A program made the position numbers and the translations under genes. A stretch of DNA of 64,000 nt, from assembly GCA_051878835.1 (NCBI GenBank), contig JBJEKW010000081.1, positions 3,352 to 67,351 on the forward strand. Reading direction: 5' to 3'. Shown piece by piece: positions 2,644-57,833 of the stretch. This DNA comes from Atopobiaceae bacterium. GTDB taxonomy: Bacteria > Actinomycetota > Coriobacteriia > Coriobacteriales > Atopobiaceae. The notes below the pieces were generated by a model. That model was not told the DNA's origin, made no database searches, and saw nothing but the letters and a program-made list of their open reading frames with translations. Positions within the stretch are counted from its first letter, which is position 1. Every line of letters begins with the position of its first letter.

Positions 2644-2676
2644 CCCTCAATATCATACCAGGAGCCCATTGCGCTG

Positions 2677-3429: not shown

Positions 3430-3641
3430 ATTGCTAGGTTCTTGTTTTACAAGGCCCGATTATACTTAATGGCTTGGGGGGCGAAGGCGTTATCTGCCAG
3501 ACCCCTTACGGTCGTCCCGTTCAGACGTTCAGAGGACTATCCAGTGGAGCCGCTCGGCGAACGAGCCGACAAATCTTGTTTAAACGGGATATAGTACCTT
3601 AGCAGTTATTATGTAGGCTGAAATATGGGTGGGGTTAGGAG

Positions 3642-6507: not shown

Positions 6508-7655
6508 TGAGCCAGTACCTGGTGACGTTTAGGCCCCTTGAGCCCTATTTTCTGGGTGGGGAACGAAATGCCCGCTTTGGGGACAGCACCATCTTCTCTC
6601 AGCCCTACTATATTCACTCGCTGAACGTGCCCTCTCAAACCACGCTGTTTGGCGCTCTGCGGTACCTGATCCTAGAGGCATCGGGAAGGCTGATTTCCAA
6701 CTGGGCAGACGCTGCCCAGAGGCAGCGCGCGGCAGAGGCGGTGGGCCCCTCGAGCTTCTCGTTTGAGAGGACCACCAGCTTTGGCGCTCTCAAATCCATA
6801 TCGCCAGCATTCCTCATCAACTGCTGCGCGTCTGCATGCACGGACATTACACAGCATGCCCTTGTGCCGGCGCCCATGAACGCGGTGGTTGGCGGTGACG
6901 GCGGGTTGGTTGGCCTGCTGAAGGTTGTGGAGCCTCCTGCGGGAGTGCACCTAAGCCGTGGCGGTCTCTACGCGACAGACTACAATGTCAAGAACGGCTA
7001 TTGCACGGGATGGCTTGACCTGGCCACTTGCAAGGTGCATGAATCTGGTGAGCTGTTCGCGGGCGTTACCCGCGTGGGTATCGACGCCTCCCGTCCCGAG
7101 AACCAGGATGATGCCTTCTTCAAGAAGGAGAGCAAGGTCCTCTCCCCACTCTTGCAAGATCGCGGTGGTGGGTTTGCGTGCTTCGCTAATATTGACATGG
7201 CTGCTGTTCCGGGGTTGGAAACCCTTTCCGAGCAAGGCGGCATAGTGTTCATGGGGCAGGACAAGTCAACCTTCTCTGTGGAGTTTACTCCCTGTTCCCA
7301 GAACGTCTCCTACCCGGTGCTCGCGCAGGGGACCGTGAGCTTACTGGAGGAGGCCCTCTCCGCCTCCTGCGAGGGTGGTACACCCGCTTGTTTCTGGTAC
7401 TCGCTGGGAGACTGCCTGGTGGAGCATAGCCCGAGGGGATTCTTCATCGTCGAAACGGATTACTTCCGTCACTTAGGCACCCACTACGAGAAGCGCTCGA
7501 GCTATCGGCAAGGGCTGTCCAAGTCCGGTCTCTATCGCATTGCGCGTGGAGGCTCTGTGTTCTATCAGGAACCCCGCTTGGTGGAAGAGGACAGGAAGAA
7601 GCGCTGTGCGGTTGTGGGCATGAACCAGCTGCTTCCTGTAAACGTGAAGGAGTGA
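6504..7655 (+). CDS. cmr3: Type III-B subunit Cmr3 (Cas5 family)
   Basis: 383 aa. The N-terminus YLVTFRPLEPYFLGGERNARFG matches the Cmr3-type 'P-x-D/E-P-x-F-F/L-x-G' start. There is a 4-nt overlap with cas10, and the gene sits in the canonical position. Confidence 0.7.
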   Translation: MMSQYLVTFRPLEPYFLGGERNARFGDSTIFSQPYYIHSLNVPSQTTLFGALRYLILEASGRLISNWADAAQRQRAAEAVGPSSFSFERTTSFGALKSISPAFLINCCASACTDITQHALVPAPMNAVVGGDGGLVGLLKVVEPPAGVHLSRGGLYATDYNVKNGYCTGWLDLATCKVHESGELFAGVTRVGIDASRPENQDDAFFKKESKVLSPLLQDRGGGFACFANIDMAAVPGLETLSEQGGIVFMGQDKSTFSVEFTPCSQNVSYPVLAQGTVSLLEEALSASCEGGTPACFWYSLGDCLVEHSPRGFFIVETDYFRHLGTHYEKRSSYRQGLSKSGLYRIARGGSVFYQEPRLVEEDRKKRCAVVGMNQLLPVNVKE

Positions 7656-8491
7656 CGACTGTGGATAACAAGTTTTACTACCTTAGCTGCCTGACGAATC
7701 TTCACGTGGGCAACGGCGCCGATAACTTTGGAATCATCGATCGCGAAGTCGAACGCGATTTCGTAACGGGGTATCCTACCATCCCATCCTCCGGCCTCAA
7801 GGGTGCCTTTCGCAAGTACTTTACGGAGGCCGGCGGGGCTGAGCTTGTGGACAGGCTCTTTGGGCCTTCCTCGGGCTCTGGTGACACCAGGCCAGGGTCA
7901 GTCAAATTCATCTCTGGCCAGCTTTTGTTTCGCCCCGTGAGGGCCTCAAAAGGCGCGTATGCGTGCTATCAGTGCACTACCATGACGACGCTACGAATGC
8001 TTGCTAGGGCACGCGGAGAGATTGCTAACGATGCGAGCATGCAGGGACTTCTCGCTGACTCTGGCCCCGAGCCGAAAACGTGCTACTTTGGCGAGGGCGA
8101 CGGGGGCGTAGAGGTCGAGGGCTTTGCGGCACCTTGTGCGGACGCGCACGAGGAACTTGGCAAGTGCGCAAAAGGCCTTCTGTCTGCCGCTGCTCCAGAC
8201 GCTGCTTCCAGGAAGCTCACGAGCGGTGTTGTTCTTCTCGGGGAGGATGATAACCGCGCGATTCCCCTTCCTGTCATCGCGCGCAATCAGCTTGACAATG
8301 GCATCAGCAAGAATCTCTGGTATGAGGAGTTTGTCCCTCATGACAGTATCTTCTGGTTTGCTGTACTTGGCCCCGAGGAGGACCTCGAGGCTTTCGACAA
8401 CGTCGTGGCTGGCAAGGTTGTGCAGATTGGAGGCAATGCCACGATAGGGCGTGGCCTCTGTCTTGTTGTTCCCTTCGGCCAGAGCATCTAG
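7652..8491 (+). CDS. cmr4: Type III-B backbone RNase subunit Cmr4 (Cas7 family)
   Basis: 279 aa with LTNLHVGNGADNFGIIDREVERDFVTGYPTIPSSGLKGAFR (catalytic-position Asp present) and the C-terminal QIGGNATIGRGLC glycine loop. Confidence 0.85.
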   Translation: MTTVDNKFYYLSCLTNLHVGNGADNFGIIDREVERDFVTGYPTIPSSGLKGAFRKYFTEAGGAELVDRLFGPSSGSGDTRPGSVKFISGQLLFRPVRASKGAYACYQCTTMTTLRMLARARGEIANDASMQGLLADSGPEPKTCYFGEGDGGVEVEGFAAPCADAHEELGKCAKGLLSAAAPDAASRKLTSGVVLLGEDDNRAIPLPVIARNQLDNGISKNLWYEEFVPHDSIFWFAVLGPEEDLEAFDNVVAGKVVQIGGNATIGRGLCLVVPFGQSI

Positions 8492-8502
8492 GGTGGGCAG
8501 CT

Positions 8503-8958
8503 ATGTCAAATGCAAGAGTCGAGAGAATGATTCCGTCTGCCAGGGACGCAATCATCAAAGCTGGAATTTCGGAAGGCGGCAGCGTGAAGAAGGCTTTCCG
8601 GGGGCAGATCTCTACTTTCGGAGCCGCAATCACCATGGGTTCCCTGTTGCCTGCGGTTGCATTTTTTAGCGACCAGGGATCTGCAGAGGTTGACCGTACC
8701 AAGCTCATGAAGGCGATTATGCTCGTCCTGCAGAAGGAGGAGGGCCTCCTGGGCGATTTCGCGAAGAGGTACGACAAACTCCTGGACCTCTGCACGGAGG
8801 TATGCAATGTGCCCTATGCCGAGGGTGTTTGCGCAAACGAACTGAGCGCCCCGCAACTTCGTGAAGGCGTCATCGATGCTGCTATCGCAATTAAACTGGC
8901 CATGAATTACTTCAGGCTAGTCACCACGGATGGCGGCGAGGGGGCGAGCCGCTCGTGA
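8503..8958 (+). CDS. cmr5: Type III-B small subunit Cmr5 (Cas11)
   Basis: 151 aa, predicted all-helical, lying between cmr4 and cmr6. It has a Cmr5-like FGAAITMGSLLPAVAFF segment. Confidence 0.7.
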   Translation: MSNARVERMIPSARDAIIKAGISEGGSVKKAFRGQISTFGAAITMGSLLPAVAFFSDQGSAEVDRTKLMKAIMLVLQKEEGLLGDFAKRYDKLLDLCTEVCNVPYAEGVCANELSAPQLREGVIDAAIAIKLAMNYFRLVTTDGGEGASRS

Positions 8959-10001
8959 GCTATTCACACAACAATGGCGGCGGAGGCTATAGGGGCAACC
9001 ATGGCTACAAGGGCGGCCAAGGTAAGCCTCGAGGCAACCGCAATGGTGGAAGTCATCAAGGACCGGGCAGAAGATTTCAGGCTTCGCCCGTGCCGTTTCA
9101 GTCGAAGAACCTTTCATGGGCGTACTATGCCGAATACTACCAAGACAGGGCCGGCAATTGGCTGTCGAACAACTCTGATGGCAACGTGATTGAGGGTCGC
9201 AATCTTGGACTGCTCACGTGCGGGAGTGGGCTTCACAGCGATCTTGCAGCCGCAGTCTCTCATGACGAACCACTGTCGGGGGTTCCCGGATACGGCTCCT
9301 TCAGGCTCAAGACGGCGTATCAGGGGCTGCTTATGGGGACGGGCTACCTTCATGCCCACGGGTCCGAAGACGGTTCGGATAACAATAACGCCTCAGGTGC
9401 ATCCGCGTTTAAAGGCGAGATAGGGATGGGGTTCTCGTTCGACTATCCATCCGGACTTCCGTATCTGCCCGGCTCATCCGTGAAGGGTTCAATTAGATCG
9501 GTGTTTCCTTGGGGTGACTCGGAGTCAAAGGACCCCATGTTCTTGAACAAGTGCGGCATCGTTGGGGCACTGCTTGTAGAGACTTTTGGGCGCGATTCTA
9601 TGAGTCAAGCAACGGCAGCGTCCAACGTGAATGACATTGGGGCAAAGGATATTGTTGAACTGAGAAACGCACTGTTTGATAACGGGGTCACGTTTCTTGA
9701 TGCCTTCCCGTATCTCCCGCCCTGCGATGAGATTAGGGGTGGGCTGCTGGCAACTGACTACATAACCCCGCATCACCGGGGAAACAAGGACGTCTTTGGC
9801 AACCCCATGCCAATTCAGATTCTGAAAGTACGAGCCGGCGTTCAGTTTGAATTTCGCTTCATTCTGCCAGATCGTGTAGAGCTTTCATCTGGCGTCCTGC
9901 TCGATCATGATGATTTGCTTGCATTTCTAAGAACGACCATTATGTTCGTTGGTGTGGGCGCAAAAACCAGTACTGGATATGGTCGGCTAATTCAGCCATG
10001 A
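8955..10001 (+). CDS. cmr6: Type III-B RAMP subunit Cmr6 with a Gly/Arg-rich N-terminal tail
   Basis: 348 aa with YLPGSSVKGSIRSVF and the C-terminal FVGVGAKTSTGYGRL glycine-rich loop. The N-terminal ~45 aa are low complexity (NNGGGGYRGNHGYKGGQGKPRGNRNGGSHQGPGRR). Confidence 0.85.
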   Translation: MSYSHNNGGGGYRGNHGYKGGQGKPRGNRNGGSHQGPGRRFQASPVPFQSKNLSWAYYAEYYQDRAGNWLSNNSDGNVIEGRNLGLLTCGSGLHSDLAAAVSHDEPLSGVPGYGSFRLKTAYQGLLMGTGYLHAHGSEDGSDNNNASGASAFKGEIGMGFSFDYPSGLPYLPGSSVKGSIRSVFPWGDSESKDPMFLNKCGIVGALLVETFGRDSMSQATAASNVNDIGAKDIVELRNALFDNGVTFLDAFPYLPPCDEIRGGLLATDYITPHHRGNKDVFGNPMPIQILKVRAGVQFEFRFILPDRVELSSGVLLDHDDLLAFLRTTIMFVGVGAKTSTGYGRLIQP

Positions 10002-10029
10002 TTGCTGACAGGCCGAGGTACGGTGGGCG

Positions 10030-12021
10030 GTGGCTGGTGTTTGGCCTCGGCCACATCGCGGGATGGAGGACGCCGGGTTGGCAGTCAATGCGAATATCGA
10101 GGAGTTTAGTGCAGCAGACGAGCGTGTTAGCTTTCACACGTTCGTCTTTCCCTTTCGTTGGGTCGTGGACGGGAATCCAGGAATCCCAGGCGCTAAGGGC
10201 GGCTCGACCTCTGCCAAGGGCACGGGAATGGATACCCGCAGGGAGTTCGCCAAGTGTCTGAACGACCGGTTCAAGATGGTCGATGCCACATGGCTTGATT
10301 GCGATGGCAATGACGCCGGAGGTGACTGGGAGCAGGGGTATGCCGTTTATCAGTACTTCAACAATGCAGCAAGGCGCCTCATGACCTGCAACTCGTCAGA
10401 GGCCTCTGGCAAATTTGGCCTCGAGAGCGACGTGGTGTGGAACTACAGGTTTGTTCCTCCCAAGGGTACTGGCAAGCTCAGCTACTACATCTGCTGCGCT
10501 GGGGATTCAGAGAATCGCTGCGCCAACAGTGGTCAAGGTGCGTGTGCCTCGGGCGGGGAAAGAGATTGTTTGAGAAAGACGGAGTACTTTCTCCCTGTCC
10601 GAGCGATTTGGGTCAAGCTCTTCGATATGGGAATAGGGCTTCTGGTGTTCGAACTCGAGTACTGGGGCCACAAGCGGGTCACGTACCCGGCATGCGCGAG
10701 CCTAAAGTCGAACAATTCTTCCCAGCAGTGGGAGCGCACCCCATTTGAGGATGTAAACATTATCAACGAGCGGGGGAGGCGCGTTTTCCCTCCGTTCCTT
10801 GGCAAGGCTGTCAGCGAGAAGTCTGGAGGAAGGGGCCTGTCTGCCGATGCAATAGCGCTGGTGTGGGACAATGGGGAGTCGTGGGACTACTACTACGATG
10901 ACGACCTCGTCGAGAACAATACCTTCACAAAGATTAGTTTTCGCAAAGAGCACGACGGTTCATTTGATCCGTTGGTCCCTAACTTCGTGAGCTACTTTCT
11001 CACGGGTAGCTTTTGCGAGGATGGCAGGAAGACGGTCTTCACGGCTGACGTGTTCGATGGCGACGGCGAGCCGGATGGCGAGGTCTGCTCGACCGACGGC
11101 AAGGTACACTACGCCATTGATCCCATTATTGACGAGCGCATGTTCACGATGTGCTTTCTAGGGGACAAGGATTTCTCCGACCGAATAAAGGGTGGCGACT
11201 GTCGACAGGGTGCGGGAGATTATCCGTACCTGACGGACCGGGACGTGATGGAGGATCTGTACTGCTTTGGGTTTATCGACGAACATGGTAGCTGCAGCTG
11301 CCAGAACCGTGTGATGCTCAAAGACATGCTTCAGACGCATGTGTACGCCCGCTGGATAGATTACGGGACCGTCAACATCTCAAGCGAGTATTCATTCATG
11401 TGCCTGTCAAGCGGAATGCCGTCTCTTCTCACCAACCCGTTTCTGACGGAGTACCAGCAGATCATTTACATCGTGCTCGCGCAGCGGGCTTCTCTGCTTA
11501 GCCTTGAGAGCCTCATTAGCCAGTATGCCCTCGAAGCGCACAAGGACAAGGACGAGGAAGGAAAGGAATTCGAGAGTTTAGAGTACACTATGGGACTCAA
11601 GGTCCGGGGACTGCAACGTCGCCATATCTACTTCTCGAGCAGGTATCTGCTGCCCGAAATCACGTCGCAGCAACAGGGTATCGAGTTGTATGACATGCTC
11701 CTGGACACCATGCTGGTTGACAAGAGAAGCCAGCAGATTGACAAGCAAATCAACGACCTCTTTGATCTGAAGAACAACGAGTATGATCTCGACGAAAGCA
11801 GGGACAACCGGGCTCAGAATGCGGTCCTGTTTGTCATTGCATTGGCTGGGTTGATTAGCCTTGCGTGCGATTTGGCGGGCGCGCCCCTGGAAGGCGTGGT
11901 CAACGATGGGTGGTTCCTCCTGTTGTTTGTCTTCATCTTCGGCGCTCTCTACGGTTTAATTCGCAAATTTGGATATCACGTGAGTGATCTGGCCAAGTCG
12001 ATTAGAAATAGGTCGAGCTAG
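10030..12021 (+). CDS. Hypothetical membrane protein with CorA-like topology; candidate type III ancillary effector
   Basis: 663-aa ORF with a GTG start 28 nt after the cmr6 stop, preceded by GAGG, on the same strand. It has a large soluble N-terminal region and long helical segments (YQQIIYIVLAQRASLLSLESLISQ; QQIDKQINDLFDLKNNEYDLDES). There are exactly two C-terminal hydrophobic helices, AVLFVIALAGLISLACDLAG and WFLLLFVFIFGALYGLI, followed by basic RKF. The loop between them has no GMN motif (APLEGVVNDG). Confidence 0.6.
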   Translation: MAGVWPRPHRGMEDAGLAVNANIEEFSAADERVSFHTFVFPFRWVVDGNPGIPGAKGGSTSAKGTGMDTRREFAKCLNDRFKMVDATWLDCDGNDAGGDWEQGYAVYQYFNNAARRLMTCNSSEASGKFGLESDVVWNYRFVPPKGTGKLSYYICCAGDSENRCANSGQGACASGGERDCLRKTEYFLPVRAIWVKLFDMGIGLLVFELEYWGHKRVTYPACASLKSNNSSQQWERTPFEDVNIINERGRRVFPPFLGKAVSEKSGGRGLSADAIALVWDNGESWDYYYDDDLVENNTFTKISFRKEHDGSFDPLVPNFVSYFLTGSFCEDGRKTVFTADVFDGDGEPDGEVCSTDGKVHYAIDPIIDERMFTMCFLGDKDFSDRIKGGDCRQGAGDYPYLTDRDVMEDLYCFGFIDEHGSCSCQNRVMLKDMLQTHVYARWIDYGTVNISSEYSFMCLSSGMPSLLTNPFLTEYQQIIYIVLAQRASLLSLESLISQYALEAHKDKDEEGKEFESLEYTMGLKVRGLQRRHIYFSSRYLLPEITSQQQGIELYDMLLDTMLVDKRSQQIDKQINDLFDLKNNEYDLDESRDNRAQNAVLFVIALAGLISLACDLAGAPLEGVVNDGWFLLLFVFIFGALYGLIRKFGYHVSDLAKSIRNRSS

Positions 12022-12696
12022 AGAGGATTACCGTATTTGGTGAATGGTTGAGCGATGGGATTCCGACGCACGGATGCGATGACCAAAGAAATGCTTGATT
12101 CGAGAGTCACACGGAACAGCGCCGGCATCATCACGACCTCCTTCACCCCCGAGCATCCAGAAAAGGTCGCAGCTTTCGCTGTCTTTCTGAAAGAACCTCG
12201 GTTTGACCGGGTCAATGAGTGGACGAGCTCGTTCGAACATTGCTCTACTCGCTGGTGCTTACCCATGTGTGGCCATCAACGCAACCATGATTACCGGGAT
12301 AGGAAAACTGGACCGGAGAAACCGCAAGGCCTTTCTGCCTCGAGGCAACGAGTGTAATAGACATGCTTCGTCCTATTGATAAGCTTCTGAACTATCAGAA
12401 ACGAGGCTTCGTCAAGATTCCTCGGGAGCTCGATACAGAAGGACCCCCGGAATAAACTCGAACCATCCGGTCCGTGAAGTAGTCTCATATATATACCAAG
12501 AGGGGCGCGAGGGAATACCCTGAGAGCACCACTAGTAATGCGTGTCTCTATCTTGGCGGCCAGCGGTTCGCCTCAGTGGTGAGTTAACAGTTCTTGGGGT
12601 ATCCGTTGCTTTCGCGATGGCTGTCTACGGGACTCTCGCTGCACCTTCCTGTTCCTCATGCCGTCTCCTTTTTGCAAGTCACAGTTGCCGTCAATG

Positions 12697-12769
12697 CAAA
12701 ACCACCCACATGACGAGGCTTTGTACCTTTCGTACACAAAGTATCGTCACGTGGGTGGTTTTGTTTTTC
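12697..12769 (+). terminator. Long imperfect hairpin followed by a T-run (intrinsic-terminator-like, or the 3' end of an sRNA)
   Basis: CAAAACCACCCACATGACGA (12697-12716) pairs with TCGTCACGTGGGTGGTTTTG (12744-12763) with one mismatch. The inner part can also pair (CTTTGTAC with GTACacAAAG). The hairpin is followed directly by TTTTTCT. Confidence 0.5.
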
Positions 12770-12919
12770 TCGACGGTTACCTTGTGACCATGCCTTGGTG
12801 GAGGATGCGGTCACACTCTCATGACTACCGCGTTTACCTGGTGCTTTATGGAGCGTCCAAGAAACGCTTTGGCGCAAACTTTCCGGGATTACTCCTCGCG
12901 TAAAAACTATCGATATCTG

Positions 12920-12984
12920 GGATGCCCACCCGAGTGTAGTTTGTACATTCGACGCACAAAGTATTGCCGTGTGGGTGGTTTTGC
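12920..12984 (+). repeat. Second, degenerate copy of the 12697-12763 hairpin element
   Basis: GCACAAAGTATTGCCGTGTGGGTGGTTTTG (about 12954-12984) closely matches ACACAAAGTATCGTCACGTGGGTGGTTTTG (12734-12763). The upstream CCCACCCGAGTG...GTTTGTAC is a decayed left arm. Confidence 0.6.
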
Positions 12985-13305
12985 ACACTGGAAGGCTTGA
13001 GGAAGCCTGTTTTGGTGCGGCGTGCGGGCTGCTGGCATGTGGGCTGCCGGGGCTATTCTGCCACAGAAAAAGCCAGGACCGGCGAAATTGCTGACCCTGG
13101 CTTTGTCTTAAAACTCTCGCTCCGAAATAGTGAGAAGCACTGTTCGTGACGCGGTTCAAGAGGTGATTGCCCGCCGCGCGCGCTTTGAGAGCTCCTGCCT
13201 GCCACATGCGGTCCGAGAAGCGCCGTTCGAGCAGCGGCCCGCGAGCAGCGTCCCGCAAGAAACCCAGCCCGAGAACTCCTGCCCGAGAACCGTAGCCCTA
13301 GCTTC

Positions 13306-15360
13306 CTAGTAGTGCACCACGACCACGTCGCCCACCTGCGTGAGCTGGTACAGCGTTGCCGCCGCCGACGTGGGGAGGTTCACGCATCCGTGGCTGCCGT
13401 TGCCACTGTAAATCGTGCCTCCGAACGAGCTTCGCCACGAGGCGTCGTGGAAGGCGACCAGGTTGTCAACGAAGGGCATCCAGTAGGTAACCTGGCTCGT
13501 GTAGTCGGGCTGACCATCGCCGTTCTCGTCCAGGCCCTTTAGGGTCTGGTTCATTCCCTTGTTGTCGTTTATGGTGTACACGCCTTCGGGGGTGGAGTGA
13601 TCGTCGGTGGGGTCACCCGACACAAAGTCCGACTCCCAAATGAGGTTGCCGCTCTCGTCGTACATGCGAGCGTGCTGCTCGGTGAGGTCGCAGTCGATGT
13701 AGCGAGCACCCCAGTCCTGGCCACCCTGCACCCAGTTGACGGCTGTCGACTTCATGGGAACCTCGGCGGTCGTGCTGTTCTGTTGGATTGCGGCAACGAT
13801 GTTCTGCGCGAGGTTGGCTCCGTCCACGACCCAGCCATACTCGCCGCCGGTAACCGTGAACTGCTTGCCGTCGGGGCGGGTGTACGTGCGCGTGGTTCCC
13901 ACCGTGTCGTACTGCTTCGAGAAGTCGCCCTGCGTCCAGGTGGTAATGGCGTCAAGGTCTCCGCTTACGTTGCCCGAGTCGTCCACGGTAAACCAGCTGG
14001 CGAACTGGTCGCTGGATACGGTGGCGATGGTGGTGCCGTTGTACGTAAGCGTAAGGTCCTGGCCAGCAAGCTCGTTTGCCTTCTGCAGACTGTCCTTAAG
14101 CGACTGCGAGTCGGCGGTAATGGTGGGCTGCTCCAGGTCGGATTCGTCAAGCGTCGCCTGAGACGAGGCGTTGGACACGGCTTCGCTCGCCACTGCCTCC
14201 ACGCTGTCCTTGTTGAGCGTGGTGCCGCCCTGCGCATCCACGATCGAGAATTGCTTCGAGTTCGAGTCGTACTTCAGGGTCGCGTTCACGGGGGCCGTCG
14301 CAGTGGAGTTAAAGTCGTCCACCGCCTGGCTTACCAAGGTGTTCAGCTTGTCGGAGTCGAAGGTTACACCCTCGGTTACGTTGTAGTCGTGCTCGCCGGC
14401 AATAAGTACCGGCCAAGCCCATGCGTTGAACTGCGACTTCGCGCTCTCGGCGAACGCGGTGCCGTCGGAGCTGTAGTCGATGTCCGAGCCGTCTACGGCA
14501 AAAGTGAAGTTGTCGCCCGTCACGTTTAGCTGGTAGTTCTCGCTGGCGTTGGCTATCTGCTGTGCCAGCTCGTCCACCGTAAGGCCCGACGCGTCGTAGT
14601 TTCCAACCTTCGTGTTGGGAAGGAAGTGCGACATAAAGTACACCGAACCACCCACATACACCACGGCAAGGCCCGCCGCAATGGCGGCTATCGCCTTGCC
14701 AGCGCCCTTGTGGGACTTCTTGGGCTTCGGAGCTGGGGGGGCAACGTGAGCCCCCTGGAACTTGTTGCGCATGGCATCTCCCGATTTCGAGCCAGAATTG
14801 CTCTTCTTTGCGGCGTTGGACCGCGGTGAATAGGTGGTGTTGACGGTCGCGGCGCTCTTGAATCCTTGGGCGCCGGTGGTGGGGGAGTCGGATGCGGCCT
14901 GATCTGCTGCCGCAGACGAGGCGCCGTCTGTATTGTTGGAGCTTGCCAGGCCGAGGCCTGCTGCGTTAGCGGCTTCCACGCCCTCCTCGTTCGATTCTGC
15001 CGAGAAGCGCGTATGGTTCGAGGCGTCATCGCCTGCGTCCTCGACGCGGTCGGGCGTGTGCTCCCACCCGTCGGACCCCAGAACCGCAGTGGTATCGGAG
15101 GACGCGGGGTCGGCTACAGGCCCAGAGACGGGGTCGGCAGACGCGGGCGCGGCAGCTGCCGCACCGGGCTGGTCGGGTTGGTCCTCGATCGAAGGAACGC
15201 GGACGGTGCGCTTCGCCCTCATGGCACGCTCACCGGCATTGGCACGGTGAGTGCGCTCGCTTTTAGGCAGCTCTCCGTCTCCCGAGGGGCTGTTACCATA
15301 TACATTGCCGTCGATGTTCGAAAGAATCCTGTTCAAATCATCTTCGTTGTAGTTGGCCAT
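13306..15360 (-). CDS. L,D-transpeptidase family protein (YkuD domain) with a disordered N-terminus and one TM segment
   Basis: 684 aa. The C-terminal catalytic motif is GSHGCVNLP. The TM segment is AIAAIAAGLAVVYVGGSVYFM, preceded by an Ala/Ser/Pro/Asp-rich low-complexity region. Confidence 0.85.
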   Translation of the reverse strand: MANYNEDDLNRILSNIDGNVYGNSPSGDGELPKSERTHRANAGERAMRAKRTVRVPSIEDQPDQPGAAAAAPASADPVSGPVADPASSDTTAVLGSDGWEHTPDRVEDAGDDASNHTRFSAESNEEGVEAANAAGLGLASSNNTDGASSAAADQAASDSPTTGAQGFKSAATVNTTYSPRSNAAKKSNSGSKSGDAMRNKFQGAHVAPPAPKPKKSHKGAGKAIAAIAAGLAVVYVGGSVYFMSHFLPNTKVGNYDASGLTVDELAQQIANASENYQLNVTGDNFTFAVDGSDIDYSSDGTAFAESAKSQFNAWAWPVLIAGEHDYNVTEGVTFDSDKLNTLVSQAVDDFNSTATAPVNATLKYDSNSKQFSIVDAQGGTTLNKDSVEAVASEAVSNASSQATLDESDLEQPTITADSQSLKDSLQKANELAGQDLTLTYNGTTIATVSSDQFASWFTVDDSGNVSGDLDAITTWTQGDFSKQYDTVGTTRTYTRPDGKQFTVTGGEYGWVVDGANLAQNIVAAIQQNSTTAEVPMKSTAVNWVQGGQDWGARYIDCDLTEQHARMYDESGNLIWESDFVSGDPTDDHSTPEGVYTINDNKGMNQTLKGLDENGDGQPDYTSQVTYWMPFVDNLVAFHDASWRSSFGGTIYSGNGSHGCVNLPTSAAATLYQLTQVGDVVVVHY

Positions 15361-39628: not shown

Positions 39629-39702
39629 CTACCAATTCATCGGCTGCGGGTACCCTCGCATCCACGAGTGCGGCAGGCGGCGCCTGTCGTGGGGAGGTCA
39701 CT

Positions 39703-52451: not shown

Positions 52452-53377
52452 CGTCCCTCGATCTCCCTCTTTCTGCGGTCGCCGTCCGCCAGCAGCTGCT
52501 GCAGCCGGTCGGCGTCGCGCTGGTCGATGGCGTCCTTGTACTCCTGCAGGTGCCCTATGAGCGTGCCGATCTCGCGCGAGAGGTTGTCGGCGTCGTCCAG
52601 GAAAAGCTCGGTCCACATGGGGGCGTTCAGCCTGGCCACGCGCGTCAGGTCGCGGTAGGAGCCTGCCGAGAAGCCCTTGTGCACGCGGGCGGACGGGCTC
52701 TTTACGTAGGCGTTCGACACGACGTGCGCCAGCTGCGACGTGAAGGCGATGACCTCGTCGTGGTGCTCGGCGGTGGACACGGTGAACTGCCCGAACCCAC
52801 AGGGTGCCAGCAGGCGCTCGATGCGGTCCAGAAGGTCCAGCCGCTCCAGGTCGGTGACGTCTGCGGGAGGCACCATGACCAGGGGCGCGTTGTGGAACAT
52901 GTTCGCGCGCGAGTGCGCGAAGCCCGAGTACTGCGTGCCGGCCATGGGGTGGCAGCCCACGAAGTGCCAGGGCCTTCCCTCGGCTATCTGGAAGCACTGC
53001 TGGCAGATGACGCGCTTCACGCCCACGGTGTCGATGACTATGGCGCCGGGGGCCACGATGTCGGCCATCTGCTGCAGCCAGTCGATGCTGACCTGGGGGT
53101 AGCCCGCCAGGATGATGAGCTCGCAGGTGGGGATGGTCTCGTCGGTCAGCTCGCCGTCCACCGTGTCGATCATGGCCAGCTCCAGGGTGGAGCGGGTGCG
53201 GTTCCAGGCGTACACCTCGCGGCCGCCCTGGTGCAGGGCGCGCGCGAACGAGCCTCCCATGAGGCCCAGGCCCACGATGCCCACGCGTTCCGGCACGTAG
53301 GAGGGGTGCTCGGGGATGGTGGGCGAGCCGACGGAGGTGGGACGCTGGTCGGGTGCCGGCGTGGTGGGTGCTGCCAT
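52448..53377 (-). CDS. tyrA: Prephenate dehydrogenase
   Basis: The Rossmann segment VGIVGLGLMGGSFARAL and HPMAGTQYSG are characteristic of the TyrA family. Confidence 0.88.
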   Translation of the reverse strand: MAAPTTPAPDQRPTSVGSPTIPEHPSYVPERVGIVGLGLMGGSFARALHQGGREVYAWNRTRSTLELAMIDTVDGELTDETIPTCELIILAGYPQVSIDWLQQMADIVAPGAIVIDTVGVKRVICQQCFQIAEGRPWHFVGCHPMAGTQYSGFAHSRANMFHNAPLVMVPPADVTDLERLDLLDRIERLLAPCGFGQFTVSTAEHHDEVIAFTSQLAHVVSNAYVKSPSARVHKGFSAGSYRDLTRVARLNAPMWTELFLDDADNLSREIGTLIGHLQEYKDAIDQRDADRLQQLLADGDRRKREIEGR

Positions 53378-54397
53378 CTACTCCACCTCCGCCGTCACGG
53401 CCTGGCGGATGAGCGCGATGCGCTTCATGGCGTCGGCGAACTGCTGGGGCGTCAGCGCCTGCGCGCCGTCGGACCAGGCCTCGGAGGGCTTGTTGTGGAC
53501 CTCGATCTCCAGGCCGTCGGCGCCGGCGGCCGTCGCCGCGTAGGCGGCGGGGCGCACGTAGCGCGTGTAGCCCGTGGCGTGGCTGGGGTCGCCGATGACG
53601 GGCAGGTGGGACAGGTGGTGGATCACGGGGATGGCGTTCACGTCGAACGTGTTGCGGGTGCGCGTCTCGAACGTGCGGATGCCGCGCTCGCACAGGATGA
53701 CGTTGGGGTTGCCCTCGCTCATGATGTACTCGGCGCCCATCAGCAGCTCGTCGATGGTCTCGGACATGCCGCGCTTCAGCAGCACCGGGGCGTTGGTCTT
53801 TCCGACCTCCTTCAGAAGCGAGAAGTTCTGTGCGTTGCGCGCGCCGATCTGCATGACGTCGACGCCCTTGTTCACGAACAGCTCGACGTCGCGCGGGTCC
53901 ATGACCTCGGTGACCACGGGCATGTCCAGCTCGTGCGAGGCCTCCATCAGCAGGTCCAGGCCCTTCTCGCCCATGCCCTGGTAGGAGTAGGGGCTGGTAC
54001 GGGGCTTGTAGGCGCCGCCGCGCAGCATCGTGGCGCCGGCCTGCTTCACGGCGCGGGCTATGTCAAAGAGGTTCTTTCCCTCGACGGAGCAGGGGCCGGC
54101 GATTACCTGGAAGTGGCCTCCGCCCAACAGCACGCCGTGGCCGCAGTCGACCACCGTGTCCTCGGGGTGGAACTTGCGGTTGGCCTTCTTGAACGGCTCG
54201 CTCACGCGCTGAACGCGCTCGACTATGTCCATGGACTCCAGCAGGAAGGGGTCAATCTGCGTGGTGTCGCCGATGATGCCCACGATGGTCTCGTTGTCGC
54301 CCTGCGAGACGTTGGTCTTGAAGCCACGCCCCTCGATCCAGGCGATGAAGCTGTCCAGCTGCTCCTGGGTGGCCGAGTCCTTTACGACGGCTATCAT
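53378..54397 (-). CDS. 3-deoxy-7-phosphoheptulonate (DAHP) synthase, type I-beta with an N-terminal ferredoxin-like regulatory domain
   Basis: It starts at MIAVVKDSATQEQLDSFIAWIEGRGF (regulatory domain). The catalytic core has IAGPCSVEG, LRGGAYKPRTSPYSYQG and IGARNAQN. Confidence 0.9.
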   Translation of the reverse strand: MIAVVKDSATQEQLDSFIAWIEGRGFKTNVSQGDNETIVGIIGDTTQIDPFLLESMDIVERVQRVSEPFKKANRKFHPEDTVVDCGHGVLLGGGHFQVIAGPCSVEGKNLFDIARAVKQAGATMLRGGAYKPRTSPYSYQGMGEKGLDLLMEASHELDMPVVTEVMDPRDVELFVNKGVDVMQIGARNAQNFSLLKEVGKTNAPVLLKRGMSETIDELLMGAEYIMSEGNPNVILCERGIRTFETRTRNTFDVNAIPVIHHLSHLPVIGDPSHATGYTRYVRPAAYAATAAGADGLEIEVHNKPSEAWSDGAQALTPQQFADAMKRIALIRQAVTAEVE

Positions 54398-54676
54398 GGT
54401 GCCTCCTTGCCGGCGCTGCCGGCCGGTGGCCGGGCGCCAATCGTTGCATTCTGTCGAAATGCTACCACGCATGCCGTCGGGTTCCGGTTCCGTGATGCGT
54501 TTGATATGTCCACGAAACACAGCGCACAGACCGGGGCGGCGCGGCGCGCTAGAATGCCTAAGGTCGAAAGAGTTGCCAGGGTTCCAAGCCAAAATCAGGG
54601 CTCCAAACCAAAACAGGCCGTCAAACCAAAACTGGCCATCAAACCAATACCCCTCGAACCAAATCTAAGGAGAAGC

Positions 54677-55513
54677 ATGTCCTTCTTGCGCGCATCCGAC
54701 CTGCCCACGAGCTATGTGAGCTACGACCTCGAGACCACGGGGCTGGGTACGCAGGCGCAGATCATCGAGATTGGCGCCGTGCGCGTGATCGACCGCGGCG
54801 AGGACGAGCGCTTCGACACCTTTGTGGCCCTGGACGAGGGGGTGCACATCGAGCCTGCGGCGGCTCGGCTGACGCACATCAGCGAGGACATGCTGGCGGG
54901 CGCGCCGTCGGTGGAGGAGGCCTATCGGCAGTTTGCCGAGTTCGTGGGCGACTTTCCGCTGGTGGGGCAGAACATCCGCCGCTTTGACAACGCGTTCGTG
55001 AACCGTGCCGCGCGGCGGGCGCAGCTGCCCTCCGTCGTGCAGAACGGCTGCTACGACACGATGCTGCTGTTCCGTAAGGTCGTGGGCGGCCCGGCGAACC
55101 TGGCAGCCATCTGCCAGTATTACGGGATCCAAAACGAGCAGGCGCATCGGGCGTGGGCTGACGCTCGCGCCACCAGCGACTGCTACCTTGCCATTCTGCA
55201 CGACGCCGAGTCCCTGACGGTGGAGGCGCGCGGCGCGGACGCCCCCGTGGTGGCGCACGAGCTGGATGGGGAGGTCGTCTGCTTCACGGGCAACACGCGC
55301 GAGTACCCCAAGCTGATGTGCGAGACCGTTGCCGTGCGCCACGGGGCCCTGCTGGCGCACAAGGTCAGCCATCGGACGACGCTCCTGGTGTGCCTGGAGC
55401 CTCACGAGACGAACAACGTGCGCCGCGCCCGCCAGCTGGGCTGCCCCATGATGGCGGGGGACGAGTTTTTGGCTCGGCTGGGCCTGACCAGCGAGGACCT
55501 GCGCAGGCGGTAG
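54677..55513 (+). CDS. DnaQ-like 3'-5' exonuclease fused to a BRCT domain
   Basis: 278 aa with ExoI YVSYDLETTGL, ExoII LVGQNIRRFDNAF and ExoIII HRAWADARATSDCY. The C-terminal BRCT-like region is LDGEVVCFTGNT...TTLLVC...ARQLGCPMMAGDEFL. A TAAGGAGAAG Shine-Dalgarno precedes the ATG. Only the 3' end of the 987-aa track ORF is real. Confidence 0.85.
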   Translation: MSFLRASDLPTSYVSYDLETTGLGTQAQIIEIGAVRVIDRGEDERFDTFVALDEGVHIEPAAARLTHISEDMLAGAPSVEEAYRQFAEFVGDFPLVGQNIRRFDNAFVNRAARRAQLPSVVQNGCYDTMLLFRKVVGGPANLAAICQYYGIQNEQAHRAWADARATSDCYLAILHDAESLTVEARGADAPVVAHELDGEVVCFTGNTREYPKLMCETVAVRHGALLAHKVSHRTTLLVCLEPHETNNVRRARQLGCPMMAGDEFLARLGLTSEDLRRR

Positions 55514-55549
55514 CGGCTGCGGGCGGGGCCGCTGGCGCCGGATGCGCGC

Positions 55550-56260
55550 GAAAGCGTGGCCGCCGCAATCGTGGCCGCTGCAAACGTGGCCACCGCGGGC
55601 TGCGTGTGCAAACGTGGCCGCTACGGGTACCCGTTCCCGACAGGTTTGCGCAGACGGGCTCAAGGGATGTGGGCCAGGGCGCCCATATCCGGGTCTGAGA
55701 GGCGAATCAGTGCAAAGCGCACGGGTCTGGGTACTCACACCTCGGACTCCTGGCAGGATTTCTGCAAGGGTGTCAGGTTCGGGTACCCGAAGGTCGGACC
55801 CCTTCAGGGGCCAGTTTTGGGCTTCTCGCAAAATCCCAGGTAGATGGGGTGGTCCAATACTTGGTCACCCCGATCTGGCATTGGTTTCTGCAAGGGTGCC
55901 AGGTTCGGGTACCCACACCTCGGACCCCTGTCAGGATTTCTGCAAGGGTTGGAGGTTTGGGTGCCCAAGCTCGCGCATTCCGTACAGCTAAGTGCACAGT
56001 GCGCTGGTCTGGGTACCCACTTCCAGTTAGTCTGCACCGGTGGGTGCAAGGTCTACGGGTCTGGGTACCCACTCCGGGGTAGTCTGCACCGGGCGAAATT
56101 GCCCCTCTTACAAATGGCCTGGTAGAAGGCCTGGCGCTAGAGAGCTTGTAGGTCGGACGGTGCAGAGTCTCTCAGTCTGGGTACCCAGAAGTGGCTAGTC
56201 TGCACCTGGAAGTGCAGAGTCGCTAGGTTCGGGTACCCAAACCTGGCTAGTCTGCAACAG
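55550..56260. repeat. Tandem array of degenerate palindromic units with 52-bp periodicity, centred on GGGTACCC
   Basis: GGGTACCC or one-off variants start at 55626, 55678 (GGGCGCCC), 55730 (GGGTACTC), 55782, 55908, 55960 (GGGTGCCC), 56012, 56064, 56180 and 56232. Spacings are 52 nt or near-multiples. Units have the form TGCA-N14-GGGTACCC-N12-14-TCTGCA, for example TGCAGAGTCGCTAGGTTCGGGTACCCAAACCTGGCTAGTCTGCA. Confidence 0.85.
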
Positions 56261-56276
56261 TCGACGAGGTGTGCTC

Positions 56277-56342
56277 GCAGCCGTCGGCGCGCCGTGCCTG
56301 AAGTGGGACGCAGCCGCCGGCGTGCCGTGCCTGAAGTGGGAA
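56277..56342. repeat. Two tandem copies of a 33-nt unit
   Basis: CGCAGCCGTCGGCGCGCCGTGCCTGAAGTGGGA is followed directly by CGCAGCCGCCGGCGTGCCGTGCCTGAAGTGGGA (2 mismatches). Confidence 0.85.
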
Positions 56343-56550
56343 GTGGCCAGCGCGGCGTCCTTACACCGGCGTGACCCGGGGCTGTTCTAGGCAGGGTAGG
56401 GCGGGGAAACAGTGATAAAGCCCCTGCTCGGCCCAGGAGAAGCCCTTCTTTGCTGTTGCCAGAAAAGTTTTTTTCGTTCTCAATACAGCCCGCCACCTGC
56501 GCAAACGCAAAATGTATACCGAACAGGTAGGAAATATTGGAAATACCTAG

Positions 56551-56579
56551 TTGCATGGTAGGGATTAAAGTGCCACACT
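56551..56579 (+). promoter_or_regulatory. Candidate sigma-70-type promoter for cysK
   Basis: TTGCAT-N17-CACACT lies about 75 nt upstream of the cysK ATG. This is sequence resemblance only. Confidence 0.3.
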
Positions 56580-56655
56580 GTGCAGCAGCCGATGGCCGCA
56601 AGAGCGCCTGACCACGGCTCCCTACAAAGGCGATTGATTGCATAGGAGAGGCATC

Positions 56656-57564
56656 ATGAAGTACGCAGGCCACGTAGAATCTCTCATCGGCTCCACCCCT
56701 CTGGTTGACCTCACGTCCCTCGGCAGCGGCAAGGCCCGCGTGCTGGGCAAGTACGAGGCCACGAACCCCGGCGGCTCCATCAAGGACCGCATTGCCAAGG
56801 CCATGCTGGACGCGGCCGAGAAGGACGGCTCGCTGAAGCCCGGCGGCACCGTGATCGAGCCCACCAGCGGCAACACCGGCGTCGGCCTGGCCATGCTGGC
56901 GGCCGAGCGCGGCTATCACATGATCCTGGTCATGCCCGAGACCATGTCCATCGAGAGGCGCAAGCTCGCTGCCAGCTATGGCGCAAAGATCGAGCTGACC
57001 CCCGGCTCCGAGGGCATGAAGGGCGCCGTCAAGCGCGCCGAGGAGCTGCGCCAGTCCATCCCCGGTGCCATCGTGGCCGGCCAGTTCACGAACCCCGCGA
57101 ACCCCCGCGCCCACTACCAGACCACCGGTCCGGAGATCTGGCGTGACACCGAGGGCACCGTCACCGCAGTCGTCGCTGGCGTCGGCACCGGAGGCACCAT
57201 CTCGGGCACCGCGAAGTTCCTGAAGGAGCAGAACCCCGCGGTTCGCGGCATCGCCGTCGAGCCCGCCGAGTCCCAGGTCCTGGCTGGCAAGCCCGCCGGC
57301 CCGCACCGCATCCAGGGCATCGGCGCAGGCTTCATCCCCAAGACCTACGACGCGTCCGTCGTGGACGAGGTCGTGCCCGTGACCTCCGACGACGCCATCG
57401 CGACGAAGAAGCGCCTGGCCGAGTCCGGCCTGCTGGTGGGCATCTCGTCCGGTGCCGCCGTGGCGGCCGCGCTGCAGCTGGCGGACCGTCCCGAGTACGA
57501 GGGCGGCACCATTGTGGCCGTCCTGCCCGACACGGGCGAGCGCTACCTGTCCATGGACCTGTAG
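56656..57564 (+). CDS. cysK: Cysteine synthase A (O-acetylserine sulfhydrylase)
   Basis: It starts at MKYAGHVESLIGSTPLVDL with an AGGAGAGG Shine-Dalgarno. The PLP-lysine motif is NPGGSIKDR. TSGNTG and GTGGTISG loops are present. Confidence 0.93.
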   Translation: MKYAGHVESLIGSTPLVDLTSLGSGKARVLGKYEATNPGGSIKDRIAKAMLDAAEKDGSLKPGGTVIEPTSGNTGVGLAMLAAERGYHMILVMPETMSIERRKLAASYGAKIELTPGSEGMKGAVKRAEELRQSIPGAIVAGQFTNPANPRAHYQTTGPEIWRDTEGTVTAVVAGVGTGGTISGTAKFLKEQNPAVRGIAVEPAESQVLAGKPAGPHRIQGIGAGFIPKTYDASVVDEVVPVTSDDAIATKKRLAESGLLVGISSGAAVAAALQLADRPEYEGGTIVAVLPDTGERYLSMDL

Positions 57565-57635
57565 GACGGCAGGCGTTCCTAGAGCACCAAGTGCCTCTGA
57601 GCAATAAGCGCTTCTGAATGCGGTTCTTCTTGGCT

Positions 57636-57672
57636 GGCGCCAGGTGCAGCGATGCCACACCTGGCGCTTTTT
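57636..57672 (+). terminator. Intrinsic terminator after cysK
   Basis: GGCGCCAGGTG-CAGCGATGCCA-CACCTGGCGC followed by TTTTT. Confidence 0.8.
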
Positions 57673-57833
57673 CTGTCGAGCATGTGGCTTGGCCACCGTT
57701 CTGGCCGCCAGAGGTGCCAGGTCAATGGTCGAGCCGCTAGCTAGGTAGAGTCTCCGTCCTGTTGCCAGCCAGGCCAGCCGTCGCGGACGATTGGTGGAGC
57801 CGCGGCGGGCCGCCTTGCCCCTGCAGGCGTTCG

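Follow-up and report, generated by a model that had tools for sequence, protein, structure and literature searches.

How a run of short, regularly spaced palindromic units came to occupy the gap between an exonuclease gene and a cysteine synthase gene in an Atopobiaceae bacterium, and what kind of element these units are, is the question raised by the locus described here. The window, that is the whole stretch of DNA analysed, is 64,000 nt long, and an earlier note made from its letters had reported an array of ~700 bp and listed as candidates a cluster of protein-binding sites, a repeat family of the REP/BIME type and a battery of small hairpin RNAs. Small corrections aside, the existence of this array as described is confirmed.

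All ten in-phase units are present, with core positions one base lower than those first given; seven carry an exact GGGTACCC core, starting at 55625, 55781, 55907, 56011, 56063, 56179 and 56231, and three carry degenerate cores, GGGCGCCC at 55677, GGGTACTC at 55729 and GGGTGCCC at 55959. The reported spacing stands, with seven 52-nt steps and two longer gaps of 126 and 116 nt. GGGTACCC occurs eight times in the window against 0.72 expected, a count reached in none of 100 shuffles, and seven of the eight copies lie within the array, the lone outsider at 39648 not being a unit. The pattern TGCA-N14-GGGTACCC, with up to two mismatches allowed, gives 22 matches against 6.6 expected, 16 of them inside the array, and these two sets of statistics exclude a chance origin for the array.

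Each unit is an imperfect palindrome, as had been claimed (10–18 of 26 mirrored positions match), and unit 10, the last, is the best of them, with 25-nt arms that are 84% complementary and a DNA fold z of −3.7. The TGCA...GTCTGCA architecture proposed for the units is complete in the last four only; what reads as ‘TCTGCA’ in units 3–6 already belongs to the following unit, as its left end. Unit 1 is conserved with loci L020 and L032, with 82% identity to L020 2067–2137. The direct repeat CAAWCGTGGCCRC, said to occur four times before the array, is exact at 55566, 55581 and 55609, the copy at ~55551 having two mismatches, and the left arm of unit 1 is formed by the last copy; L020 holds the direct repeat (G)CAAWCGTGGCCRC in single copy. 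The palindrome GGGGTG...CACCCC that had been seen in one of the gaps exists at 55846–55871, as a hairpin private to the 78-nt linker, but it is no family-wide feature (mean folding z of −0.24, not significant, for the variable half of 19 linkers). No credible ORF crosses the array, in agreement with the first description: mechanically called ORFs do not pass a test of G+C by codon position, and the 52-nt period is not divisible by 3. Upstream, the 987-aa ORF at 52550–55513 is an over-call, the Pfam RNase_T domain falling on its residues 723–875. At Rfam gathering thresholds, a tRNA-Arg is the sole match in the whole window. The features in and around the array are listed in the table.

Table. 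Features of the array and its flanks, in window coordinates (strand ‘.’, none assigned)
Feature	Position	Strand	Remarks
Upstream flanking gene, 278-aa RNase_T/DnaQ-like exonuclease	54677..55513	+	ATG at 54677; 278 aa in the gene calls of relatives
Direct repeats of 14–15 nt, (G)CAAWCGTGGCCRC, three exact and one approximate	55551..55621	+	Local duplications of unit 1 left arm
Unit 1, arm subfamily 3 (GCGCAAACGTGGCCG...GGGTACCC...GTTTGCGC)	55605..55652	.	Inverted repeat; nhmmer match
Unit 2, degenerate, core GGGCGCCC at 55677	55657..55704	.	Arms missed by the family profile
Unit 3, chimeric (arms from subfamilies 2 and 1), core GGGTACTC	55709..55756	-	
Unit 4, arm subfamily 2 (CTGCAAGGGT...GGGTACCC...)	55761..55808	-	
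Long linker, 78 nt, conserved motif TCTACCTGGGATTTTGCGAGAAG on the minus strand	55809..55886	-	
Unit 5, arm subfamily 2	55887..55934	-	
Unit 6, degenerate: left arm subfamily 2, core GGGTGCCC, right arm unrelated	55939..55986	.	
Units 7 and 8, arm subfamily 1, 52 nt apart	55991..56090	-	nhmmer E = 3e-11 and 2e-12
Canonical 68-nt linker, variable 5′ half, conserved 3′ half (TCTACCAGGCCATTTGTAAGAGGGGCAAT, minus strand)	56091..56158	-	
Units 9 and 10, arm subfamily 1, 52 nt apart	56159..56258	-	nhmmer E = 1e-11 and 2e-13
Direct repeat, 33 nt in two copies, just beyond the array	56276..56341	+	Outside the unit family; absent from L020
Downstream flanking gene, cysteine synthase A (PALP)	56656..57564	+	

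The window array has counterparts elsewhere. The unit pattern was scanned across 185,579 species genomes and returned 29 loci, 21 of which belong to a single MAG, Coriobacteriales bacterium SUG1433, where they are spread over 18 contigs; this genome is described as near-conspecific with the source of the window, and the remaining eight are single, chance-like matches in unrelated taxa. The MAG holds at least ~93 units in ~20 intergenic arrays, a lower bound, the count having been taken from 8-kb stretches around exact matches and many arrays being located at contig ends. A profile search over the MAG loci and the window recovers 100 units at E<1e-3. Because the flanks of the window array are 92–96% identical to those on MAG contig 081, the two arrays represent the same locus.

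Across the family, the unit is a 48-nt quasi-palindrome, GGTGCAGACTAGCCAGGTGTGGGTACCCAGACCTGCCGACTCTGCACC, built from dyad-symmetric conserved blocks, the outer GGTGCA.A / T.TGCACC and the inner GGT.TGGGTACCCA.ACC, with segments of ~7 nt between outer and inner blocks that are not complementary. Units succeed each other head-to-tail, either through a 4-nt spacer, which gives a period of exactly 52, or through a 68-nt linker module, which gives a period of 116. The short step is 52 nt in 41 of 42 instances and the long one 116 nt in 17 of 28, and higher-order periods of 168 and 220 nt are present in the arrays. A conserved TCTACCWGGCCTTTTGCGAGAAGGGCAAT is found in 19 aligned copies of the linker, a linker motif of the kind known from BIMEs. 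Three arm subfamilies, each self-complementary, share a common core, and subfamily-1 arrays keep one unit orientation throughout (for example, ++++++ in L015, ++++++ in L025, ------- in the window). The ends of the arrays are heterogeneous, lying in some arrays at the core and in others at TGCACC, and neither a target-site duplication nor a fixed terminus was seen at them.

Considered as DNA, the consensus unit folds at −12.9 kcal/mol (z = −2.9), with a 5x5 internal loop separating its 8-bp basal stem from an upper stem; z-scores of single units range from +0.5 to −3.7, and complementarity within units is barely above the level given by the consensus, the hairpin potential being modest. The central dinucleotide of the core is TA in 78 cases, CG in 11 and single-sided in five, both sides switching together, and the core variants are all symmetric and all fit GGYRCC. 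Bases next to each other cannot form a pair inside a hairpin, so that this central symmetry is a property of the duplex. In sequence, the interiors of the arms and one half of the linker come close to random (pairwise identity 0.355, with 0.27 expected), with lengths nevertheless exact, a combination that hints at a functional constraint on spacing and that a purely selfish-repeat view leaves unexplained.

All 22 arrays are intergenic, lying between called genes (55513 and 56656 in the window), and none of the nine with both flanks known sits between divergent genes (chance p about 0.08), so that a gene 3′ end is always adjacent. The neighbours encode ABC ATPases, LysR, glgA, malQ, nhaA, ADH, isocitrate dehydrogenase, tpiA/secG and enolase, and an all-against-all BLASTP of 74 called proteins found no recurrent neighbour gene other than ABC-ATPase paralogues. 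Array content varies: it differs between the window and L020, whose flanks are ~95% identical, and the number of units differs among strains with a 99% identical cysK product, a comparison for which close homologues served, the exact look-up of the window CysK having returned no record. A more distant relative, L038, keeps the RNase_T–cysK order around a 418-bp gap with zero units. Units of the same array resemble each other more than units of different arrays (identity 0.736 vs 0.680, permutation p<0.0005). BLASTN of the intergenic region against plasmids and phages yielded no match, and viral contigs scanned with the unit pattern yielded none either. The JGI metagenomes, searched for GTGCA-N14-GGGTACCC-N14-TGCAC, returned two singletons, neither of them a family member, and thus added no diversity; one of the two, from a contig of 39% G+C, forms a perfect palindrome of 90 nt.

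Intergenic repeats of several kinds are known from bacteria, and the family shares part of its traits with those compared here. Like the REP (PU) and BIME elements, among them the RAYT-mobilised REPINs (for definitions, see PMC2817692, PMC3733652), its units are short, imperfect, intergenic palindromes located typically near gene 3′ ends in many copies, and like them they cluster at regular intervals in mosaic arrays whose linkers contain conserved motifs, occur as several subtypes per genome, vary in copy number between strains and are restricted to a lineage. What marks a REP, however, is a conserved terminal tetranucleotide on one side of its palindrome, GTAG or CGTC (PMC3733652), and the units end in GGTGCA / TGCACC, with GTAG only inside a minority of arms. 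REP units measure 20–40 nt against 48 nt here; the best-conserved parts of the family unit are the centre or tip of the palindrome (GGGTACCC) and its base, with mid-arms that are not complementary, unlike REP; and BIME units alternate in orientation, whereas those of the family run head-to-tail in one orientation. A REP family usually exceeds 100 copies, a figure to be set beside the minimum of ~93 units in ~20 arrays on 18 MAG contigs. No gene for a RAYT, the Y1/HUH transposase that REPs typically flank, was found among ~36 flanking genes or in the 374 kb scanned here, a fraction of the genome, in which a crude regular expression for the Y1/RAYT motif was run on six-frame translations. Finally, the REP and BIME elements compared here are those of Enterobacteria and Pseudomonas, whereas the host of this family belongs to the Coriobacteriales (Actinomycetota), for which no published REP family was found.

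The family also recalls MIRU-VNTR loci in its tandem units of ~51–53 bp, its tens of intergenic actinobacterial loci and its strain-variable copy number. MIRUs are non-palindromic and operon-oriented, and contain small ORFs set in phase with adjacent genes, whereas the units described here are quasi-palindromic, are mixed in orientation relative to the flanking genes and have a period of 52 nt, not a multiple of 3. With the NIMEs of Neisseria (PMC3184786), in which RS units are bounded by dRS3, the family appears to have in common that inverted repeats bound variable segments in a strain-variable mosaic; NIME units are, however, of variable length (50–150 bp between 20-bp dRS3), in contrast to lengths fixed at 52 and 116 nt, and dRS3 are integration targets of phages and IS, whereas the family has no associated integrating element. 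Closest in kind are the untagged REP-like families of Mycobacterium tuberculosis, Deinococcus radiodurans, Bordetella, Brucella and cyanobacteria (PMC3733652), likewise dispersed, small, palindromic and intergenic, without a terminal tetranucleotide or a known transposase, although their sequences are unrelated and they occur as singletons or dimers rather than as phased tandem arrays with a dedicated linker.

The best reading of the family is that of an untagged, lineage-restricted and previously undescribed set of repeats, for which the loose class of untagged REP-like stem-loop repeats is the best fit: the units are short, dyad-symmetric, multicopy, dispersed, intergenic and lineage-restricted, all of the traits by which this class is recognized. 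The array in the window is probably one locus of such lineage-specific, small, interspersed, quasi-palindromic repeats, assembled in intergenic mosaic arrays and comparable in kind to the REP/BIME elements known from E. coli. The REP/BIME candidate in the earlier note is borne out in kind by the ~20 intergenic arrays of the near-conspecific MAG, the subfamilies and the linker module, but the tag and the alternation are lacking, and no RAYT gene was found in the DNA scanned.

The elements would act at the level of DNA rather than RNA, and the symmetric blocks at fixed distances may be the recognition elements of a protein. This protein would most likely be an enzyme that seeds copies, such as a transposase or recombinase, or else a host DNA-binding protein, and it could read either the duplex or extruded hairpins. 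Seeded arrays would then grow, shrink and homogenize through slippage during replication and through unequal recombination and gene conversion among units, and exchange at the conserved core would produce chimeric units; effects on neighbouring genes are likely secondary. Some observations weigh against this reading. No transposase or recombinase was found among the ~36 array-flanking genes, the heterogeneous array ends bear no insertion signature, the hairpin potential is modest, the exact lengths hint at a constraint on spacing, and units are almost never solitary, which fits local amplification better than the transposition of single units.

Other explanations of the array have to be weighed against this one. 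Conservation resides in dyad-symmetric blocks at fixed distances, with free sequence between them. A dimeric DNA-binding protein is a plausible reader of these blocks, and it is possible, if unlikely, that the arrays are phased platforms for a host protein of this probably dimeric type and are maintained by selection for that function. The protein would be a nucleoid-associated, chromosome-organizing or topology-related factor recognizing GGGYRCCC and the flanking GTGCA/TGCAC. The symmetry of every core variant within GGYRCC, the 34-nt half of the linker whose length is conserved without its sequence and the lack of strand preference in the mismatches of the units all argue in this direction, as does the helical arithmetic: at 10.5 bp per turn, 52 nt correspond to 4.95 turns, 116 nt to 11.05 and the two together, 168 nt, to 16.0, and with such near-integer values all cores would face the same side of the helix, across the linkers too. 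This calculation hangs, however, on the assumed helical repeat, and one near-integer linker length could be due to chance. The number of units moreover varies between near-identical strains and a syntenic relative has no array, so that no locus-specific requirement is evident; the array neighbours have no common functional theme; and no candidate protein was found. A slim chance is left to the more specific proposal that the arrays are helically phased platforms for a lineage-specific duplex reader of GGGYRCCC and GTGCA/TGCAC, either a chromosome-organizing factor of unknown type or a non-RAYT enzyme that builds and remodels arrays through exchange at the core. It is highly improbable, by comparison, that the period should be read from core to core as a miniature inverted-repeat element, CCCAGACC...GGTGTGGG, with 23-nt TIRs, a 50- or 114-nt form and duplicated TA flanks, and that the arrays arise by repeated insertion beside existing copies. 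A further dyad axis does run through the array where TGCACC-NNNN-GGTGCA forms a junction, many arrays open with a right half-unit or close with a left one, and thus break at the core, the linker and short forms have identical ends, and chimeric units change arm type at the core. Against these points, other arrays terminate at TGCACC, 11 of 94 cores have CG instead of TA, in diverse backgrounds, solitary copies are essentially absent, the free GGGTACCC site at 39648 of the window is unoccupied, and no transposase of the IS630/Tc1 or any other type was found among the genes and DNA scanned near the arrays.

Action as RNA, through 3′-UTR or intercistronic hairpins that stabilize or attenuate mRNAs or through processed small hairpin RNAs, appears quite improbable. 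The gene 3′ ends beside the arrays, the location of several arrays downstream of highly expressed genes (enolase, tpiA/secG, isocitrate dehydrogenase and glgA) and a whole-array fold that is better than that of shuffles (z = −7.5) are consistent with it; such a z is, however, expected of any array of similar palindromes, and the orientation of the units relative to the upstream gene (7:3) is not significant. G.T mismatches, at 121 vs 146 A.C, are not favoured as the G.U type would be, and the similar frequency of the two indicates that neither strand is preferred. Transversion mismatches at conserved positions account for 23% of stem cells, and RNA pairing cannot account for the TA/CG co-variation at the centre. 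The proposed battery of hairpin RNAs is also at odds with Watson–Crick pairs in only 64% of stem cells and with pairing of 71.9% vs 70.2% in the shuffled control. No promoter-like or terminator-like sites were found in a scan at the arrays, and an Rfam search of 55400–56700 at E<=1 gave only two sub-threshold matches to miRNA models; a known RNA family was rejected for the array, no Rfam family matching it. Next to no credence is given to the array being CRISPR-like, a parS or iteron cluster, or a product of chance or assembly, despite its regular spacing, its palindromic units and a genuine CRISPR-Cas locus in the same window. That locus (array 32–271, cas genes 721–12021) lies 55 kb away and its repeat, GCGGCACCTTACCTATAGAGGGATTGAGAC, is unrelated to the units, which abut with a 4-nt spacer, vary among themselves, have no unique spacers and recur at ~20 loci, as befits the original judgement that the array is not CRISPR-like. 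The centromere/parS or iteron suggestion is not supported: housekeeping genes adjoin the ~20 loci, par or rep genes adjoin none of them, and there was no plasmid or phage match. An assembly artefact is unlikely because the family was assembled independently in several samples. A link to KpnI-type restriction had been raised as well; GGTACC is found outside the array at the frequency expected for the window, and no restriction–modification gene is present among the window genes at 721–15360 or the four around the array. A BsgI-like geometry (GTGCAG N16/14) was considered and dropped for lack of conservation at the sixth base.

Work on small interspersed palindromic repeats is extensive for Proteobacteria and scant for Coriobacteriia, and a literature search for GGGTACCC repeats or REP families in Coriobacteriia/Atopobiaceae found nothing relevant, nor any publication on such a repeat family in this class. 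With its exact lengths, drifting sequence between the blocks and co-changing central bases, the family offers a clean test case of selfish DNA vs a protein that reads geometry. Were the phased platform or the array-building enzyme real, the repeat architecture would be new and so would its protein, beyond the addition of another REP family; if the repeats are ordinary ones, a false lead for CRISPR, centromere and sRNA annotation at the array loci is still removed. The family further provides a ready VNTR marker for strain typing in an uncultured, gut-type, Atopobiaceae-like lineage, whose short-read assemblies break at these repeats, as the many arrays located at contig ends indicate.

The gene-free gap proposed in the earlier note holds up, as does the ten-unit array within it; the genes on either side encode an RNase_T-type exonuclease and cysteine synthase A. 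Reading positions 55000–56800 recovers ten units in a 52-nt register, every one an imperfect palindrome as described; the core positions first listed keep this register and are each one base too high. The core-to-core steps are 52, 52, 52, 126, 52, 52, 52, 116 and 52 nt. Chance is ruled out for the clustering of cores: GGGTACCC occurs eight times in the window against 0.72 expected, a count reached in 0 of 100 shuffles, and the sole copy outside the array, at 39648, is surrounded by no unit. TGCA-N14-GGGTACCC, allowing up to two mismatches, gives 22 matches in the window against 6.6 expected, 16 of them within the array. The array is a mosaic: arm subfamily 3 is represented by unit 1, subfamily 2 by units 4–6 and subfamily 1 by units 7–10; of the remaining two, unit 2 is degenerate and unit 3 chimeric. 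The short direct repeat reported to precede it is present and consists of unit 1's left arm, locally triplicated.

The genome-wide pattern search recommended in the earlier note, run with TGCA-N13-YGGGTACCCR-N13-TGCA on 185,579 species, each represented by one genome, revealed a dispersed family with more than one locus. Among the 29 loci matched, 21 lie on 18 contigs of a single metagenome-assembled genome (MAG), Coriobacteriales bacterium SUG1433 (GCA_029101205.1), most of them with multiple matches at spacings of 52, 104, 116 or 168 nt; the remaining eight loci are lone matches in unrelated taxa, a number close to chance expectation. MAG contig 081 (L020) represents the same locus as the window, with flanking genes 92–96% identical, so the window derives from a close relative of SUG1433, and CysK homologues place this lineage near Olsenella and Atopobiaceae. 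A profile search seeded with the exact matches identified 100 units at E<1e-3, comprising 93 in the MAG loci and seven in the window, and no further unit in the rest of the 64-kb window. Nothing related to the unit was found in JGI metagenomes, viral contigs, plasmids or phages; one of two metagenome matches (L030, 861–970) is an unrelated perfect palindrome of about 90 nt centred on GGGTACCC, on a contig of 39% G+C. Many MAG arrays lie at contig ends, so the unit copy number is a lower bound, and short-read assemblies are evidently broken by the family. One array divided between contigs appears to account for both L001 and L029, since a unit and a linker are identical in the two. Arrays can lie close together, with three on a 16-kb and three on a 20-kb MAG contig (L009/L021 on JAQXQO010000123.1; L014/L022/L025 on JAQXQO010000066.1).

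The 48-nt consensus unit, GGTGCAGACTAGCCAGGTGTGGGTACCCAGACCTGCCGACTCTGCACC, contains two conserved dyad-symmetric blocks, an outer GGTGCA.A / T.TGCACC and an inner GGT.TGGGTACCCA.ACC, separated by non-complementary segments of about 7 nt whose conserved mismatches give the unit a polarity. Folded as single-stranded DNA, it pairs over 8 bp in a basal stem and, beyond a 5x5 internal loop, over 9 bp with one mismatch in an upper stem capped by a GTAC loop (-12.9 kcal/mol, z = -2.9); for individual window units, z lies between +0.5 and -3.7. Units are arranged head-to-tail, with short steps of exactly 52 nt in 41 of 42 cases and long steps of exactly 116 nt in 17 of 28 (115–117 nt in 22). The long step contains a 68-nt linker, of which the 3′ half, TCTACCWGGCCTTTTGCGAGAAGGGCAAT, is conserved, while the 34-nt 5′ half keeps its length and not its sequence (pairwise identity 0.355 vs 0.27 expected). 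Higher-order repeats, with 168- and 220-nt periods, are built from blocks in which a linker accompanies two or three units. The core and geometry are common to at least three arm subfamilies (1, GGTGCAGACT...; 2, CCTGCAGGGGTCSGA...; 3, GCGCAAACGTGGCCG...), and chimeric units, with arms from two subfamilies joined at the core, are located at block boundaries.

All 22 arrays are intergenic. Where both flanks are known (n=9), the flanking genes are co-directional in six cases, convergent in three and divergent in none; the neighbours are ordinary housekeeping genes without a shared theme, and no transposase is among them. Turnover is fast. Despite flanks about 95% identical, the array of the window has no unit-by-unit alignment with that of L020, the closest relatives of window units are found at other loci, and strains with 99% identical CysK differ by whole units. 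Unit identity is 0.736 within arrays and 0.680 between them (permutation p<0.0005), which indicates local amplification or homogenisation. A more distant relative (L038; CysK protein 92% identical) keeps the RNase_T-cysK order around a 418-bp gap with zero units. It carries a small perfect hairpin, CGTTTAATCGGGTATCCCGATTAAACG, 3′ of the RNase_T gene (2806–2836), whose position and centre, GGGTATCCC, recall window unit 1, a resemblance that does not establish homology.

Our best supported reading is that the array probably belongs to a lineage-specific, untagged, REP/BIME-like mosaic repeat family, the REP/BIME option raised at the outset being the right kind of answer: the family is dispersed, restricted to intergenic DNA, modular, divided into subfamilies, subject to rapid gain and loss of units between strains and confined to one lineage. 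The conserved dyad blocks would serve as putative protein recognition elements, arrays may grow, shrink and homogenise through slippage, unequal recombination and gene conversion, exchange at the core could produce the chimeric units, and a putative enzyme may have seeded the loci. A phased protein-binding platform, with the geometry itself under constraint, is compatible with this reading and, as the main rival, unlikely though worth considering; it would account for the exact 52 + 116 = 168 bp, equal to 16.0 helical turns at 10.5 bp per turn, and for length conserved without sequence conservation.

Action as hairpins at the RNA level is improbable. Across 94 aligned units, standard pairs fill 71.9% of cells against 70.2% with partners shuffled, so the palindromy resides mostly in the consensus rather than in compensation within single units; this weak excess is largely due to three self-complementary subfamilies, and in most units six of the 22 stem positions lack a pair. 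G.T mismatches do not outnumber A.C mismatches (121 against 146), so no strand is preferred as the folded one, and array orientation relative to the gene that ends there splits 7 to 3. The two central core bases co-vary (TA in 78 units, CG in 11, a single-sided change in five), CG cores occur on diverse arm backgrounds, and every core variant fits GGYRCC. This symmetry belongs to the duplex, because adjacent bases are unable to pair in a hairpin. Together, the pairing, mismatch, orientation and co-variation results favour an element that acts at the DNA level, read by protein or shaped by symmetric copying, and speak against the battery of hairpin RNAs once suggested, for which neither an Rfam match nor any site resembling a promoter or terminator was found. 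TA-flanked miniature elements, read core-to-core, are more doubtful still, given the heterogeneous array ends and the presence of CG cores. A CRISPR, parS, iteron or artefactual origin has next to no probability; the centromere and iteron options of the earlier note found no support, and the array does not qualify as a CRISPR array, a genuine one lying elsewhere, at the window start.

The REP/BIME-like family shares the general workings of REP/BIME and can be placed in the loosely defined group of untagged REP-like stem-loop families that PMC3733652 mentions. It departs from strict-sense REPs and from BIMEs in defining features. Strict-sense REPs measure 20–40 nt and carry a GTAG or CGTC tag, whereas the present unit measures 48 nt and has neither, and BIME units alternate instead of running head-to-tail. 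No RAYT was seen in a crude motif scan of 374 kb of sequence, the family is not MIRU-like, and we found no publications on such repeats in Coriobacteriia. The family is new and its kind already known; two puzzling features, the exactness of the phasing and the co-variation within the palindromic core, merit follow-up.

Features of the window, with positions
Feature	Position	Remarks
CRISPR array end	32-271	repeat GCGGCACCTTACCTATAGAGGGATTGAGAC, spacing 67-69 nt
RT-Cas1 fusion	721-2643
Cas6	2677-3429	minus strand
Cas10/Cmr2	4723-6507
Cmr3	6504-7655
RAMP proteins	7652-8491 and 8955-10001
987-aa mechanical ORF	52550-55513	over-call; only last 278 codons (54677-55513) match RNase_T gene of relatives
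Antisense ORFs	53378-54592 and 56137-57696	spurious
Hypervariable spot in DAHP synthase/RNase_T gap	54577-54647	L020 972-1193; L032 7829-7882
RNase_T-type exonuclease	54677-55513	upstream of array; 278 aa, size from gene calls in relatives
Exact core GGGTACCC	starts 55625, 55781, 55907, 56011, 56063, 56179, 56231
Degenerate in-phase core GGGCGCCC	55677
Degenerate in-phase core GGGTACTC	55729
Degenerate in-phase core GGGTGCCC	55959
33-nt direct repeat	56276-56341	2 copies, 93% identical; directly downstream of array
Cysteine synthase A	56656-57564	downstream of array

The CRISPR array end adjoins a type III-B-like cas cluster (721-12021) in the low-G+C (52–56%) part of the window, and this locus has no relation to the 52-nt units. 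The 33-nt direct repeat is outside the unit family and is missing from the orthologous L020 region. The 987-aa over-call is of a kind typical of high-G+C DNA, and the antisense ORFs are likewise spurious. A second hypervariable intergenic spot, compared here with L020 and with L032, two loci in which unit 1 is conserved, lies between the divergently oriented DAHP synthase and RNase_T genes: the window copy contains an 18-nt tandem repeat in about 3.4–3.9 copies, and the MAG has another, longer block with a 27-nt repeat.
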